Below are positions 49,676 to 57,095 of a stretch of 64,000 nucleotides of DNA, in pieces. The translations under genes and the position numbers were made by a program. Source of the DNA: Beijerinckiaceae bacterium (GTDB lineage: Bacteria > Pseudomonadota > Alphaproteobacteria > Rhizobiales > Beijerinckiaceae); the NCBI GenBank assembly GCA_965249685.1, contig CBDFMN010000002.1, positions 8,511 to 72,510 on the forward strand, written 5' to 3'. Positions within the stretch are counted from its first letter, which is position 1. Each line of letters starts with the position of its first letter. Below the pieces are notes generated by a model, which worked only from the letters and a program-made list of their open reading frames with translations, did no database searches and was not told the DNA's origin.

Positions 49676-51133
49676 GTGGCCGCCAAGGCCATCATGCTGC
49701 AGGGAACGGGCTCCGATGTCGGCAAGTCGCTCCTCGTCGCCGGCCTCTGCCGCGCCCTCGTGCGGCGCGGTCTGCGCGTGCGGCCGTTCAAGCCGCAGAA
49801 CATGTCGAACAACGCCGCCGTGACGGCAGACGGCGGCGAGATCGGCCGCGCCCAGGCCGTGCAGGCGCGCGCTTGCGGCGTGCCGCCCTCCGTCCACATG
49901 AACCCGGTGCTGCTGAAGCCCCACAGCGGCACGGGCTCGCAGGTGGTGGTGCAGGGACGCGTCGCCGGCCAGGCCGAGGCCAAGGCCTATCAGGGATGGA
50001 AGCCGCGTCTCCTGCCGGCGGTGCTCGACAGCTTTGCGCGCCTCAAGGACGAGGCGGACGTGGTCGTGGTCGAAGGCGCCGGCAGCGCCTCGGAGGTCAA
50101 CCTGCGCGCCGGCGACATCGCCAACATGGGTTTTGCCCGTGCCGCCGACGTGCCGGTGGTGCTCGTCGGCGACATCGACCGCGGCGGTGTCATCGCTCAG
50201 CTCGTCGGCACCCAAGCGGTCGTCGCGCCCGAAGACGCCGCCATGGTGACGGGTTTTCTCGTCAACAAGTTCCGCGGCGACCCCAGCCTCTTCGCGGAGG
50301 GAATGCGGTTGATCGCGGAAAGGACCGGCTGGCCGGCGCTCGGCCTCGTGCCCTTCTTCCCCGACGCGGCCAGACTGCCGGCCGAGGACTCGCTCGCCCT
50401 GCGCGGCTGGACGCCGGGCGACGGACCGCTGACGATCGCCGTGCCCCTCCTGCCCGGTATCTCCAATTTCGACGACCTCGACCCGCTGCGGCTGGAGCCG
50501 GCCGTACGGCTGGTGATGGTGCGTCCGGGCGAGACCTTGCCGCCGCAGGCGCGTCTGGTGATCCTGCCGGGCTCGAAGACCACGATCGCCGATCTGAAGG
50601 CGTTGCGCCGCGAGGGGTGGGACATCGACCTCGCCGCCCACGTCCGGCGCGGCGGCCATCTGTTCGGGCTGTGCGGCGGCTACCAGATGCTCGGCCGCAG
50701 CCTTGCCGACCCGCTTGGGCTGGAAGGGCCGCCGGAGGAGGTGGCGGGCCTCGGCTACCTCGACGTCGCGACCGTGCTCGGCGGCGACAAGCGCCTCGCG
50801 CCGGTGACCGGGACCACCGCGGCGGACGCCGCGCCCTTTGCCGGCTACGAGATGCACCTTGGCACCACCGGCGGCCCGGCCTGCGAGCGCCCGCTCCTGC
50901 GCTTCGCGGACGGACGCGCGGACGGGGCCCTCTCGGACACGGGGCGGGTCGCCGGCTGCTATGTCCACGGCCTCTTCGCCGACGACCGGCAGCGCGCCGC
51001 CTGGCTCGCCCGGCTGGGCACCGCGAGCGACGGCGCCTCCTACGAGGCGGGGCAGGAGGCGGCGCTCGATGCGCTCGCCGCGCACCTCGAGGCGCATGTC
51101 GCTATCGACCGCCTCATCGCCCTAGCGCGATGA
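49676..51133 (+). CDS. cobQ: Cobyric acid synthase
   Basis: [42 protein letters not shown]. Confidence 0.95.
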
Positions 51134-52100
51134 CCAGCGTCGCGGCCGCGATGGCGCCGGCGTTCAGGCCGCAGGCGAGCCGGTAGAGGCCCAGCGCCCG
51201 GTCGATCGCCGCCGCGTCGGGCGGGCCGCCGTCGCCCATCGTCGCGTCGATGACGGTTGCGCCGTCGTAGGCGCGCGCGCCACCCAGGCGCAGCCCCAAA
51301 GCGCCGGCCATCGCGGCCTCCGGCCAGCCCGCATTGGGCGAGGGATGGCCGCGCGCGTCGCGACGCATGACGCGCCAGGCGTCCCGACCGGACGCCTCGC
51401 CGCCGATCGCGGCGGCGAGCACGATCCACAGCCCGGCGAGCCGCGCCGCCGGCCAGTTGACCGCGTCGTCGAGCTTGGCGGCGGCGAAGCCGAAGGCGAG
51501 GTGACGCGGCGAGCGATGGCCGACCATGCTGTCGGCGGTATTCACCGCCTTGTAGAAGACGCCGCCCGGCAAGCCACCCAGCGCCAGGAACAGCGCGGGC
51601 GCGACGATCCCATCGGAGAAGTTCTCGGCCAAGCTCTCGATCGCCGCGCGCGCGACCCCCGCCTCGTCGAGCGCGGCGGTGTCGCGCCCGACGATCATCG
51701 CCACGGCGCGGCGCCCGGCCGGCAAGCCGCCGCTTCGCAGCGCGTCGCGGACGGCGCGGACGTGCTCGTCGAGGCTGCGCTGCGCCAAGCATGACGAGGC
51801 GAGGAGGCCGAGGACCGCCGCCGCCGCCAGCGTGGGAAGCAGGCGCACGGCCGCCGCCTCCAGCGCGAGGGCCGGGAGAAGCGCGGCGGCAAGCAGGATC
51901 AGCAGCGCGAGGAAGCCGGCGGCCCGGCGTCGCGCGAAAGGCTCACCTTCAAGGTTGAAAGACCGGTCGAGGCGATCGAGGCAGCCGCCGAGCCACGTAA
52001 CGGGATGGCCGACGCGGCGGAACACCGCCGCCGGGTATCCGAACGCGGCTTCGACGAGCAGGGCCACGCACGCGGTGCAGAAATGGATCAGGGTGTCCAT
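51114..52100 (-). CDS. cobD: Adenosylcobinamide-phosphate synthase
   Basis: [45 protein letters not shown]. Confidence 0.95.
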
Positions 52101-52339
52101 GGCCCTCGAGGCTTAGCGATGGAGCAGGACGCCGGCAACAGGCGCGTGGCTAGAGGCGCGTGGCTTTTGCGCCGATTACGACGAGGCGGAAGCTTAAGCC
52201 CGATCCGACGTCCCGTGCCGCGCCGCTCCTTAACTTGCTTTGCGACACTGGACTTGCTTCGCGACGCTTGCTCTGCGACCCTTGCAAGAGTGGAATCACG
52301 CTGTCGCGCTGGATCGTCGCCGCCGGCGGGGGCCAACGT

Positions 52340-52379
52340 TTTAAATTCGTTCTAAAGTGTAGGTTGGAGCATTTCTAAT
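52340..52379. promoter_or_regulatory. Two Irr/ICE-like iron boxes upstream of ftrA
   Basis: TTTAAAT-TCG-TTCTAAA (52340-52356) and GTTGGAG-CAT-TTCTAAT (52363-52379) vs TTTRGAA-N3-TTCYAAA. Confidence 0.6.
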
Positions 52380-52506
52380 ATAGGGCCTGCGACCTCGTGT
52401 TTTCCCTAAAATCAGGGCTTCCGTCTTGATTAGCGCTCCCGGGTCATCGATAGGTTTGCTTCAAAGGCAGCATCGGCATCACGCCCTATACGAAAGATCC
52501 TCCTCC

Positions 52507-53037
52507 ATGCGTCTGGTGTTCACCGGCCTGTTGTTTGGAAACATTCTAATCTCGTCCGCGGCACTCGCCAAGGAAATCCCGCTCGGGCCGGAGCAGGAGA
52601 AGGACGGCATGACGTTCGGCGCCGTCTACCTCCAGCCGATCGAGATGGAACCCGAAGGCATGATGACGCCGGCGAAGGAGTCGGACGTCCACTTCGAGAT
52701 CGACGTCAAGGCCGCCAAAGGCAATGGCAACGGCTTCGCGCAGGGCGACTGGGTGCCCTTTCTCAAGGTCAGCTACGTGCTGACGAAGGTCGATGGCGGC
52801 GGACAGACGAAGAAGGGCGCGCTGATGCCGATGGTCGCCAACGATGGCCCGCACTACGGCGACAACGCCAAGCTGTTTGGCCCCGGCAAGTACACGATCT
52901 CCGTCACCGTCGCCCCGCCCGGCGCGGAGTTCGGCCGCCACGTCGACAAGGAGACCGGTGTTGGGCCTTGGTTCAAACCCGTGACCACGGACTGGGCCTT
53001 CACCTATGCCGGCACCGGCAAGAAGGGTGGGTATTGA
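52507..53037 (+). CDS. ftrA: Periplasmic Fe/Cu-binding protein (P19/Tp34/FtrA family)
   Basis: Signal peptide; AVYLQPIEM, SDVHFE, MPMVANDGPHYG, RHVDKETGV. Confidence 0.92.
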   Translation: MRLVFTGLLFGNILISSAALAKEIPLGPEQEKDGMTFGAVYLQPIEMEPEGMMTPAKESDVHFEIDVKAAKGNGNGFAQGDWVPFLKVSYVLTKVDGGGQTKKGALMPMVANDGPHYGDNAKLFGPGKYTISVTVAPPGAEFGRHVDKETGVGPWFKPVTTDWAFTYAGTGKKGGY

Positions 53038-53039
53038 CC

Positions 53040-53396
53040 ATGGCGCGGTTTACATCCGCCCTCGCGGCTGTCGCGACCGGCCTGGCGTTCGCCAGCTTCG
53101 GACCCATATGCAATGTGGCGCGCGCCGCCGACGAGCCGGTCTTCCCGATCGAGTTCAACGAGGGCGTGATGGCGCCGCTTCGCACCGAGGTGCCGGCGAA
53201 TACGCGCTTCAAGCTCGCCTTGACCAACAAGGGCAAGAGCCCGGCGGAGTTCGAGAGCAGCGAGCTGCGCCTGGAGAAGGTGCTGGCGGCGGGCTCGGCC
53301 TCCACGCTGGTGATCCGCACGCTCGATCCCGGCGAGTACAAGTTCTTCGACGATTTCCACCCCGATGCCCCGCCCTCGGTGCTCGTCGCCAAGTAG
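53040..53396 (+). CDS. ftrB: Cupredoxin-fold periplasmic protein (FtrB type)
   Basis: PAEFESSELRLEKV, LDPGEYKFFDDFH. Confidence 0.88.
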   Translation: MARFTSALAAVATGLAFASFGPICNVARAADEPVFPIEFNEGVMAPLRTEVPANTRFKLALTNKGKSPAEFESSELRLEKVLAAGSASTLVIRTLDPGEYKFFDDFHPDAPPSVLVAK

Positions 53397-53426
53397 GCGG
53401 CATGCCCGCGAGGGAGGCGCGACGAT

Positions 53427-54878
53427 TTGGCCGAGATGAGCGACGTTTCCCTTCCGGCCCGGCGCGGCATGGCCCCGGCGCGCCGCCCTGCCCCCGGCCT
53501 TCTGGCGCCTAGGCTTGCCGCGGCCGGCGAGTGGCTGCGTCGCCACCAGCGCGCGATCAACGTCGTGCAATGGGGTCTCATCGCGCTCTACGTGCCGCTC
53601 GTCGCGGTGCCCGCCTTCCTGCCGCTGCCGGAGCGCACGGCGCATCTGTGGAGCAACCTCACCCTCTTCGCGCAATTCGCGTTCTGGGGCGTGTGGTGGC
53701 CTTTCGTGCTGCTCAGCATGGTCGTCGTCGGCCGATCCTGGTGCGGGCTTTTCTGCCCGGAAGGCGCGCTGACCGAGCGTGTCAGCCGGTACGGCCTCGG
53801 CCTCGCCGTTCCGCGTTGGCTCCGCTGGCGCGGCTGGCCCTTCGTCGCCTTCTCCTTGACGACGATCTACGGGCAGATGACCAGCGTCTACCAATACCCC
53901 AAGCCGGTGCTGCTGATCCTCGGCGGCTCGACGGTGGGCGCCATGGTGGTCGGCTACCTCTACGGTCGCGACAAACGGGTGTGGTGCCGCTACCTCTGCC
54001 CCGTGAACGGGGTGTTCGGCCTTCTCGCCAAGCTGGCGCCGGTGCATTTCCGCGTCGACGAGGAGGCGTGGATGCACTCGCGCCGGGCGGTCAAGATCTT
54101 CGCGCGCCGGGTCAATTGCGCGCCGCTCGTGGCCCTGCCGACGATGAAGGGCGCGAGCGACTGCCACATGTGCGGCCGCTGCAGCCAGTTCCGCGGCGCC
54201 ATCGCGCTCGCGCCGCGCTCGCCCAACCGGGAGGTCACGACGGTCGCCGGCGCCGACCCGAAGCCTTGGGAGACGGTGCTCATCGTCTTCGGCCTCATGG
54301 GGGTCGCCGCCGGCGCTTTCCACTGGAGCAGCAGCCCCTGGTACTATTCCGCCAGGACCGCCGTCGCGACCTGGCTCATCGACCACGACCTGACCGCCCT
54401 CCTCTCGGTGCAGCCGCCGTGGTGGGTGCTGACGAACTATCCCGACAACAACGACAGCCTGACGCTGTTGGATGGCACCCTGCTCGTCGCCTACATCCTT
54501 GCAACGGCCGCTGTCGTCGGGCTCGCCGTATCGGCCGGCCTCGCCGGGGCCACGGCGGCGCTGGGACGCTGGCGCTTGGCGGCGTTCCATCATCTCGCGC
54601 AATGCCTTATTCCGATCGCCGGCTGCGGCGTGTTCCTCGGGCTTTTCGCCATCACGCTGGCCATGCTGAAAGCCGATGGCGTATCGTTCGGCGCGGCCGT
54701 CGGCGTTGTGCGGGCGGCGATGCTGGGCGGCGCCTGGGCCTGGGTCGTCGCCCTCGCCTGGGGCGTGGCCGGCCGCTACGCGGCGGTTCCGGCTCGCCGC
54801 CTCGCCGCTACCGCGTGCGTCGGCGTGGCCGGCGGGGTCGGCGTCGCGAGCTGGGTGCTGCTCTTCTTCGTCTGGTAG
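53427..54878 (+). CDS. ftrD: Membrane polyferredoxin (FtrD type)
   Basis: WCGLFCPEG, WCRYLCPVNG, CHMCGRC; many TMs. Confidence 0.88.
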   Translation: MAEMSDVSLPARRGMAPARRPAPGLLAPRLAAAGEWLRRHQRAINVVQWGLIALYVPLVAVPAFLPLPERTAHLWSNLTLFAQFAFWGVWWPFVLLSMVVVGRSWCGLFCPEGALTERVSRYGLGLAVPRWLRWRGWPFVAFSLTTIYGQMTSVYQYPKPVLLILGGSTVGAMVVGYLYGRDKRVWCRYLCPVNGVFGLLAKLAPVHFRVDEEAWMHSRRAVKIFARRVNCAPLVALPTMKGASDCHMCGRCSQFRGAIALAPRSPNREVTTVAGADPKPWETVLIVFGLMGVAAGAFHWSSSPWYYSARTAVATWLIDHDLTALLSVQPPWWVLTNYPDNNDSLTLLDGTLLVAYILATAAVVGLAVSAGLAGATAALGRWRLAAFHHLAQCLIPIAGCGVFLGLFAITLAMLKADGVSFGAAVGVVRAAMLGGAWAWVVALAWGVAGRYAAVPARRLAATACVGVAGGVGVASWVLLFFVW

Positions 54879-55058
54879 GCGCCCGCTCTCGCTTCCAAGT
54901 CTACAGGGGCGGGTCCGCCGACCGAGCCTGCGACACCCGCACCGGCATTAAATATAAACACAATCGGCTTCCGCCCCACATGCGAATCAACCGCAGGTTG
55001 CTAGTTAAGAAAGCGTAAAATTTTAGTCTAAAGCGTTCGTTACGCGGCGTTTTACTTC

Positions 55059-57095
55059 ATGCGTGTTAACCTAACACAGACACTTGATCCCGCGCCGCGA
55101 CCTCGCCCGCGCGACGCCTACGTCGATCTTCCGGCAGATCTCGCCTTTCTCCGCGCCTATGGCGTGCCGCACCACGACCTGCGGCGCGCGGCGCGCCGGG
55201 CGTCCGTCCAGGCCGTGCCCGCCGCCGAGGCTCTCATCGCGGCCGGCGGCATCAGCGCCCACCTGTTCTATCGCGCGCTAGCGGACCACCTCGGCCTGCC
55301 CTTCGTCCAGAGCGGGATCGCGCTGGCGCCCGGCCCCGCGGCCTCCGCGACCGCCCACGGCCTGGCCCGCCTCGCGCCCGGCGCACAAGCACCGTGGTTG
55401 CTCGCGCCGCGCGGAGCCGCCCTGTCCCTCCTCCTCGAGGCGCGCCGGCGTGGCCTGCGCATGCCGGATGCGCTCGTCACCACGCCCAGTCGCCTCTCTT
55501 TGATGGCGCGCGGCGCGGACGAAGTCGCGATGACGCATGCGGCAAGCGAGGGCCTTCCGGAACGCGACCCCGGCCTGTCGGCCAAGACAGCGACGGATCG
55601 GTCCGTCAAGCTCGGCTTGGCGGTCGGCCTCGTCGTCCTCGGCACCGCCGCTGCTCTCGCGCCGCTACCCACCGCGATCGCGGCCGGACTCGTGTTCTTC
55701 GCGGCGATGACCTTCCGCTTGATGGTCTGCGCCGCCGGCTTGGCGGTTCCGCACGCGGTGGCGGAGGCGATCGCCGACCGCGAACTCCCGCTCTATTCCG
55801 TGCTGGTCCCGATCTATCGGGAGGCCGCGATGGTGCCAGCGCTCGTCGCGCGTCTCGATGCCCTCGACTATCCCCGCGCCAAGCTTGAAATCCGCCTCCT
55901 GGTGGAGGCCGACGACGCGGAGACCCAGCTCGCCTGCCTGGCGGCGCCACTCGCGCCGCATTACGAGGTGATCGTCGTGCCGAGCGGCCACCCGCGTACC
56001 AAGCCGCGCGCCCTGAACTTGGCGCTGCCGCTGGTGCGCGGCACCCTCGTGACGATCTTCGATGCCGAGGACGCCCCCGAGCCGCAGCAATTGCGTCAGG
56101 CCGCCGCTCGCTTCCACCACGCGCCGCCGGACCTTGCCTGCCTCCAAGCCAGTCTGGCGATCCACAACGGCGCCGAGAGCCTCCTCGCGCGCCTTTTCAG
56201 CCTGGAATACGCGGGCCTCTTCGACCTCTTCAACAAGGGCATCGCCGCGTGGCACTTGCCCATGGCGCTGGGTGGCACCTCCAACCACTTCCGCGCGGCT
56301 GCCTTGCGCGCGGTCGGCGGCTGGGATGCCTGGAACGTCGCGGAGGACGCGGACCTCGGCCTGCGGCTCGCGCGCTTTGGCTTCAGGACGGAGGTTTTGG
56401 CAGCGACCACGTCCGAGGAGGCGCCGACCGACCTGGGAAACTGGTTCCGGCAGCGGCGGCGCTGGACCAAGGGCTGGATGCAGACGGCCCTCGTGCTCGG
56501 CCGCCACCCGGGCCGGCTGTACGCGGAGCTCGGCTTGTGGCAGACGGTCACGATCTTCCTGCAACTCACGAGCCTCGTGGCCGGGCCGCTCGCCGCCTGC
56601 CCGCTCACGGTGATCACCGCGGTATGGTTCTGCGCCTACGACCTGCCCGAATGCGCCGCCTGGGCGCAGTGGGCGGAAGCCACGCTGTGGGGCTCCGTCT
56701 TCGCGCTCGGACCAGCCTCGGTGCTATGGCCCGCCTACGCCGCCGCTCGGATGCGACGGCTGCAAGCCACCCCGCTCGCCGTCCTCGCCTTGCTGCCCTA
56801 TCAGGTCCTGATCGGCCTTGCCGCCTGGGGCGGCCTCGTCGACCTGCTCGTCAGGCCCCACCACTGGCACAAGACGCGACATGGGGCGGCGATCACGATC
56901 GATCGCGCCCACACCTCGGACGAGAACCGGCGCGCAGGCGCGCCGGCCTGGTTGGCTCAGCCTTTGGTACGGGCCTTTCGCGCGGCATACCGTGCGTCGC
57001 GGGCCGCTTTCCGATCGACCTCGTCGGCGATGACGCGCGATGCGCGCGCCAGGGCCGCCGCCGCGTCCGCGGCCTTGGCTTCCTCGGCAGCCTGA
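55059..57095 (+). CDS. GT2 processive glycosyltransferase with degenerate N-terminal MshEN/T2SSE_N-like domain
   Basis: LVPIYRE, DAED, GGTSNHF, AEDADLG, QRRRW; N-terminal ALIAAGGISAHLFYRALADHLGLPFV. Confidence 0.88.
   Translation: MRVNLTQTLDPAPRPRPRDAYVDLPADLAFLRAYGVPHHDLRRAARRASVQAVPAAEALIAAGGISAHLFYRALADHLGLPFVQSGIALAPGPAASATAHGLARLAPGAQAPWLLAPRGAALSLLLEARRRGLRMPDALVTTPSRLSLMARGADEVAMTHAASEGLPERDPGLSAKTATDRSVKLGLAVGLVVLGTAAALAPLPTAIAAGLVFFAAMTFRLMVCAAGLAVPHAVAEAIADRELPLYSVLVPIYREAAMVPALVARLDALDYPRAKLEIRLLVEADDAETQLACLAAPLAPHYEVIVVPSGHPRTKPRALNLALPLVRGTLVTIFDAEDAPEPQQLRQAAARFHHAPPDLACLQASLAIHNGAESLLARLFSLEYAGLFDLFNKGIAAWHLPMALGGTSNHFRAAALRAVGGWDAWNVAEDADLGLRLARFGFRTEVLAATTSEEAPTDLGNWFRQRRRWTKGWMQTALVLGRHPGRLYAELGLWQTVTIFLQLTSLVAGPLAACPLTVITAVWFCAYDLPECAAWAQWAEATLWGSVFALGPASVLWPAYAAARMRRLQATPLAVLALLPYQVLIGLAAWGGLVDLLVRPHHWHKTRHGAAITIDRAHTSDENRRAGAPAWLAQPLVRAFRAAYRASRAAFRSTSSAMTRDARARAAAASAALASSAA

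Follow-up and report, generated by a model that had tools for sequence, protein, structure and literature searches.

Ftr systems are described as single operons of the ABCD (or ABC, APBCD) type. Among them, FtrABCD serves Fe2+ uptake in Brucella abortus, Bordetella, and Burkholderia cenocepacia. Here, we analyzed a 64,000-nucleotide stretch of DNA (the window) from a Beijerinckiaceae bacterium (assembly GCA_965249685.1, contig CBDFMN010000002.1, positions 8,511 to 72,510), which carries ftrA, ftrB, and ftrD ordered as in FtrABCD, with no gene for an FTR1 permease (ftrC) between ftrB and ftrD. The data presented below make it likely that this locus is the A/B/D part of a split Ftr system for Fe2+ uptake, controlled by Irr through iron control element (ICE) boxes and served by a divergent FTR1 permease, designated C', that is encoded in trans.

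Intact ftrA, ftrB, and ftrD genes without ftrC

The locus had been recognized from the letters of the window as ftrA-ftrB-ftrD lacking ftrC, and this description held: the three genes are intact and contiguous (Table 1), with gaps of 2 bp between ftrA and ftrB and, as had been noted, 30 bp between ftrB and ftrD. Neither of these gaps, nor any other part of the locus, holds an FTR1 gene. A tblastn search with canonical FtrC and C' as queries found no FTR1 remnant on the window's contig, and no pseudogene remnant of canonical ftrC was found in the window's genome.

All three products belong to the families expected of FtrABCD components, and the retention of metal-ligand motifs claimed by the sequence-only reading was borne out by motif checks and by alignment to solved structures. 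FtrA, encoded by the only ftrA copy in the genome, has a signal peptide ending at ALA, before KE, and is ~70% identical to the solved FtrA 8VV5, with the alignment starting at the first mature residue of FtrA. Its ligand motifs DVHFEID, MPMVANDGPHYG, and GRHVD are present; the His of the last of these is the residue mutated in structure 8VV6. FtrB, the genome's sole cupredoxin of the FtrB type, is ~60% identical to B. abortus FtrB 8VUK (5.6e-34) and conserves FFDDFHP, which holds both D118 and H121, the Cu ligands of the Brucella protein (PMC11966278). FtrD starts at a TTG codon 10 nt past GGGAGG and carries two CX3CP motifs (CGLFCP and CRYLCP) together with a C...CxxCxxC motif (C231...CHMCGRC). 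Because it is equal in length to FtrD of canonical ABCD operons and 55 to 67% identical to it over the full length, FtrD contains no extra domain. A search of the PDB with an AlphaFold model of FtrD (mean confidence, pLDDT, 78) returned no structural match with E < 1. We also considered whether the C-terminal membrane half of FtrD could be a transporter replacing FtrC; this was rejected, as FtrD of ABCD operons has that half too.

A lone FTR1 permease of a second clade is encoded on another contig

The sequence-only reading had called for an FTR1 search of the rest of the genome. Using the PF03239 profile, we found one true FTR1 gene (G000:C3:872673-873599; score, 113 bits; cut-off, 25.3), which lies on a contig other than that of ftrABD. 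Its product has both REXXE motifs (REVIE and REGAE) and ~7 hydrophobic segments, and it belongs to the FTR1/ILT permease family. The gene follows mdoG-mdoH and precedes a DEAD-box helicase gene; with 143 bits against the EfeU equivalog cut-off of 255, and with these neighbors, it is not an EfeU gene. Its true start is likely the TTG just before IGALIIVFREVIE, giving ~277 aa as in orthologues.

In a maximum-likelihood tree, FTR1 sequences fell into two clades on long branches, with supports of 97/98 and 97/96. The canonical FtrC clade comprises all 12 genes placed between ftrB and ftrD, whereas the C' clade includes the unlinked FTR1 of the window's genome. Identity between the two is 27 to 32%, and both REXXE motifs are kept in either clade.

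Genes of the C' clade occur in four contexts. First, solo C' genes occupy the mdoGH-C'-DEAD helicase position seen in the window's genome and are monophyletic (98/97 support). Second, C' is paired with a second cupredoxin gene, B', whose product is 33 to 42% identical to FtrB; B' lies directly upstream of C' in 16 of 20 family genomes without ftrA or ftrD (L153-L172), making this the commonest context. No B' cupredoxin was found in the window's genome. Third, an A'-B'-C' arrangement is present in a genome of the window's own genus (G002). Fourth, C' stands directly 3' of ftrD in Methylobacterium, where A-B-D-C' was found at 3 + 12 loci, with ftrD and C' often overlapping; ftrA-ftrB-ftrD-C' is the standard layout of that genus (L042, L043, L045, L104-L152). 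Two metagenome-assembled genomes (MAGs) also bring C' and ftr genes together, one with the order B'-C'-A'-D and one, a Pseudorhodoplanes MAG, with C' 3.8 kb from A-B-D.

Other arrangements were encountered in the family as well. In G196, two tandem genes for FtrB-like cupredoxins lie between ftrA and ftrC (A-B-B-C-D; L046:9921-10623). In G024 (L014), G097, G161, G089, and G125, P19 genes adjoin FTR1 matches located in open frames of 650 to 720 aa, and the match of G024 is an outlier on a very long branch of the FTR1 tree. This P19 plus large-frame FTR1 arrangement looks FetMP-like and would be a further type of FTR1 system in the family.

C' accompanies ftrABD loci that lack a linked permease

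To place the locus among its relatives, we used a set of 201 genomes forming a GTDB-style Beijerinckiaceae, judged from named hits. ftrD was present in 31 of these, every one of which also has ftrA. As for the frequency of ABD-only loci, on which a survey had been proposed, A-B-D without a linked FTR1 gene was the layout in 16 of the 31 ftrD genomes; 12 others had A-B-C-D and 3, all Methylobacterium, had A-B-D-C'. C' was encoded in trans in 15 of 16 ABD-only genomes versus 1 of 12 ABCD genomes (Fisher P = 6e-6, kinship ignored), and it was found in ~49 of 170 genomes without ftrD (P = 4e-7 versus ABD-only, kinship ignored). The one ABD-only genome without C' is G099, a 94%-complete draft. The contrast between ABD and ABCD genomes was also seen within two genera, Rhodoblastus (g63) and g43. 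In the genus of the window, where ftrA is present in 3 of 21 genomes, solo C' is confined to the two genomes with ABD. Of 20 more genomes, from outside the family and without canonical C, 15 were found to have C'. When the 80 best ftrD loci were classified in a broader scan of named genomes, the result was 34 ABCD, 28 ABD-type, 12 ABDC', and 3 A-D only loci, with 3 that were of another kind or on a contig too short.

The ABD layout is kept at 55 to 81% protein identity over at least eight family genera and beyond. G016, a genome of the window's genus, has A-B-D, with identities of 80% (A), 77% (B), and 81% (D), and the layout is also found in G027; Methylocapsa shares it, and in Beijerinckia indica and Methylocella tundrae A-B-D lies beside cobO-cobQ-cobD-cobC. 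A recent deletion of ftrC at this locus, one of the outcomes that the sequence-only reading had set against its own proposal, is ruled out, since these and other relatives have the same layout. In the FtrD tree, ABD-only loci appear in at least three places; the window's FtrD falls in a clade of eight ABD-only genomes (99/98 support), and Rhodoblastus has operons of the ABD type as well as the ABCD type, which stem from different FtrD lineages. In Beijerinckia mobilis (G022; L027/L079, L012), ftrB-ftrD lies beside cobD/cobQ, and ftrA stands alone on a different contig. Thus, components of the system tolerate dispersal, which goes further here than in the window's genome.

ICE-like boxes at the ftrABD and C' loci

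The ICE consensus is TTTAGAA-N3-TTCTAAA (PMC1698941), and an ICE/Irr box is likewise predicted for Brucella (PMC1698941). Sites were scored by the number of matches among the 14 specified consensus positions. The two ICE-like boxes previously noticed upstream of ftrA were recovered, with a third inside the gene (Table 1). Throughout the whole 3.58-Mb genome, only 4 ICE-like sites score at least 12 and only 14 score at least 11; the count rises to 123 at 10 or more, 109 of these having exactly 10/14. Boxes 1 and 3 are two of the four top sites. The upstream pair, with a spacing of 23 to 25 bp and a position of about -167/-144, is seen again in G016, G228, G157, and G112, and a box of at least 11/14 is present in most ftrA promoters of the family. 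One of two Fur-family proteins encoded in the genome is an Irr equivalog (196 bits; cut-off, 170), and the other is Zur-like. With an ICE motif in the promoter and an irr gene in the genome, ftrABD is a predicted member of the Irr/ICE regulon, and Irr control of it is plausible.

For C', a box of at least 11/14 is found within 350 bp upstream in 7 of 13 solo genes; in the window's genome, a 10/14 box precedes the annotated ATG of C' by 40 bp. The ICE-like boxes at both loci suggest that ftrABD and C' are probably both under Irr control in iron limitation. Judged by the same motif, two other loci, which hold the genome's remaining top sites, are likely further Irr targets: C3:3111151-3111212, with a 13/14 and 11/14 pair 45 bp apart, and C3:882856-882872, a 12/14 site ~10 kb from the C' gene, near suf genes. 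A scan of positions 52050-55150 for sigma-70 promoters and terminators gave no informative match.

Table 1. Features of the ftrABD locus and its surroundings (positions in the window; ICE-like boxes with matches out of 14)
Feature	Position	Strand	Product or sequence	Match or score	Remarks
cobD	51114-52100	-			Upstream of ftrA and divergent from it; cobQ adjoins
ICE-like box 1	52340-52356		TTTAAATTCGTTCTAAA	12/14	167 bp upstream of ftrA ATG
ICE-like box 2	52363-52379		GTTGGAGCATTTCTAAT	10/14, weak alone	23 bp past box 1
ftrA	52507-53037	+	176 aa, P19-type periplasmic Cu/Fe-binding protein	PF10634, 2e-60	
ICE-like box 3	52534-52550		TTTGGAAACATTCTAAT	12/14	Within ftrA signal-peptide codons
ftrB	53040-53396	+	118 aa, periplasmic Cup-II cupredoxin	PF13473 Cupredoxin_1, 5e-27	
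ftrD	53427-54878	+	483 aa, membrane polyferredoxin	PF12801 Fer4_5 x2	NapH/MauN-like stretch
GT2 glycosyltransferase	55059-57095				Downstream of ftrD

A proposed split Ftr system

By analogy with work on Brucella, Bordetella, and Rubrivivax, FtrA (P19) would capture periplasmic Fe2+, the cupredoxin FtrB would oxidize it, and the polyferredoxin FtrD would carry the electron into the membrane. Fe3+ would then pass through an FTR1 permease, which in this genome would be the divergent C' instead of canonical FtrC. We infer that A/B/D and C' are coupled physically and functionally, and that C' serves ABD, because the two are linked elsewhere, C' and canonical C have complementary distributions, the usual B' partner of C' is absent here, both loci share the ICE-like motif, and dispersal of components is tolerated. 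The sequence-only reading had left two explanations for the missing ftrC side by side, a permease encoded elsewhere or a permease-independent module. The first is favored by the presence of C' in nearly all ABD-only genomes and hardly any ABCD genomes and by its position after ftrD in Methylobacterium, while the second found no favor for this genome.

Several observations weigh against the coupling of C' to ABD. The co-occurrence statistics carry no correction for phylogeny. The C' box in the window's genome reaches only 10/14, a score that 109 sites in the genome share. G099 and two MAGs have ABD loci and show no FTR1. Solo C' is present in four genomes of genus g47 that have neither ftrA nor ftrD, in which a high-scoring FtrB-like cupredoxin is encoded at an unlinked position; C' can therefore do without A and D. 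Finally, three Sinorhizobium/Ensifer isolates (Sinorhizobium sp. 6-70, Sinorhizobium psoraleae, and Ensifer sp. IC3342; L110:5134-7347, L122, and L151) have ftrA followed by ftrD and no ftrB. No open reading frame of at least 90 aa lies in the ftrA-ftrD gap of L110, and no FTR1 or OFeT_1 was found anywhere in these genomes of 6.5 to 7.4 Mb. Both genes are nonetheless under purifying selection (omega 0.11 to 0.19 at dS 0.45 to 0.63), so A and D can serve a function that does not depend on FTR1.

Alternative explanations

The last three of these observations are what would be expected if A/B/D formed a redox module for Fe/Cu, leading from periplasm to membrane independently of FTR1, with C' working separately. 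Such a module might pass electrons between the quinone pool and periplasmic Fe/Cu, thereby feeding another transporter or detoxifying metal. For the window's locus we regard this as unlikely: C' and canonical C are strongly complementary among ftrD genomes, Methylobacterium has C' fused into the operon behind ftrD, C' of the window's genome lacks the cupredoxin that usually accompanies it, and FtrA, FtrB, and FtrD share 55 to 70% identity with proteins from canonical ABCD systems and keep every ligand motif. That FtrA and FtrD, with or without FtrB, make up a metal redox module that is self-sufficient without FTR1, C' being coincidental or only accessory here, is suggested by the Sinorhizobium/Ensifer loci kept under purifying selection without FTR1 but seems to us quite unlikely.

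Decay is a far weaker explanation for the locus than a split Ftr system. A nonfunctional remnant of an ABCD operon that had lost ftrC would account for the absence of the canonical permease and for the patchy occurrence of ftrA and ftrD in the genus, with ftrA in 3 of 21 genomes; however, all three genes remain intact, ligand motifs included, the layout is kept across genera and in the well-supported eight-genome FtrD clade, and the ICE boxes upstream are conserved, which makes decay very improbable.

The neighborhood of the locus, where cobO/cobQ/cobD(/cobC) flank ftrA in the window, G016, Beijerinckia, Methylocella, and Methylocapsa, raises the question of a role in cobalt or cobalamin metabolism. 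Nevertheless, Rfam searches of the window and of the cobD-ftrA spacer, even at E <= 5, found no cobalamin riboswitch, and the spacer showed no other RNA; cobD is divergently transcribed; the promoter has iron (ICE) boxes instead; and no cob neighbors are found at the ABD loci of Rhodoblastus, Methylovirgula, g47, and g8, nor at any ABCD or ABDC' locus. Because cob adjacency is restricted to the one ABD subclade that contains the window, and there is no cobalamin riboswitch, the neighborhood is best read as inherited synteny, and the locus does not fall among cobalamin-regulated genes. The cobalt link, earlier called possible but unsupported, thus gained no support, and we consider it highly improbable.

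Scarcely any credence is due to an OFeT_1-like protein of the ILT superfamily (274 aa; G000:C3:1395387-1396211, L005:7388-8212) as the partner permease instead of C': this membrane protein gives the second, weak PF03239 match of the genome, scores 35.5 bits with PF16955 (cut-off, 26.9), and has EFVEA and LEGIE motifs, but it lacks REXXE, was missing from the 10 other genomes tested for it, and does not travel with ABD, because it is absent from the ABD-only genomes G016, Beijerinckia G095, and G099, as well as from the FTR1-less Sinorhizobium genomes.

Significance and comparison with known systems

A full-text search of the literature turned up no account of the ABD-only or the ABDC' layout, and no paper with "ftrABD." Our data show A/B/D to be an evolutionarily separable module; in the system proposed here, its permease, encoded in cis or in trans, would come from one or the other of two FTR1 subfamilies sharing only ~30% identity. 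The split form is present in about half of the ftrD-bearing genomes of the family, which include methylotrophs and soil bacteria, and annotation pipelines or regulon studies that seek a linked ftrC would miscall such loci as incomplete. The split layout also offers a natural experiment on which permease contacts with A, B, and D are essential. A more surprising lead lies outside the window, in the FTR1-less ftrA-ftrD loci of Sinorhizobium/Ensifer, on which a second function of P19 plus polyferredoxin could be tested.

Compared with FtrABCD, the window's locus has the same A-B-...-D order and closely similar FtrA and FtrB with their metal ligands kept, and its FtrD has the same length as that of Burkholderia (55 to 60% identity). 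It differs in having no ftrC between B and D; the lone FTR1 of the genome is unlinked and belongs to the separate clade described above. Relative to the A-B-D-C' operons of Methylobacterium (15 genomes), A/B/D are 57 to 62% identical and C' is 51 to 54% identical; there, C' follows ftrD within the operon, whereas in the window's genome it is on another contig. The B'-C' modules and FtrABC systems have a permease of the same C' clade, preceded by an FtrB-like cupredoxin; they have no polyferredoxin and usually no P19, whereas here C' is solo and the cupredoxin is encoded with A and D. Finally, FtrAPBCD of Rubrivivax gelatinosus, FetMP/P19-cFtr1 of Campylobacter and Escherichia coli, EfeUOB, and yeast Fet3p-Ftr1p likewise follow the logic of an FTR1 permease coupled to an oxidase, with a P19 or cupredoxin-like periplasmic partner as here; in each of these systems, the genes for the permease and its partners are linked, unlike the arrangement in the window's genome.

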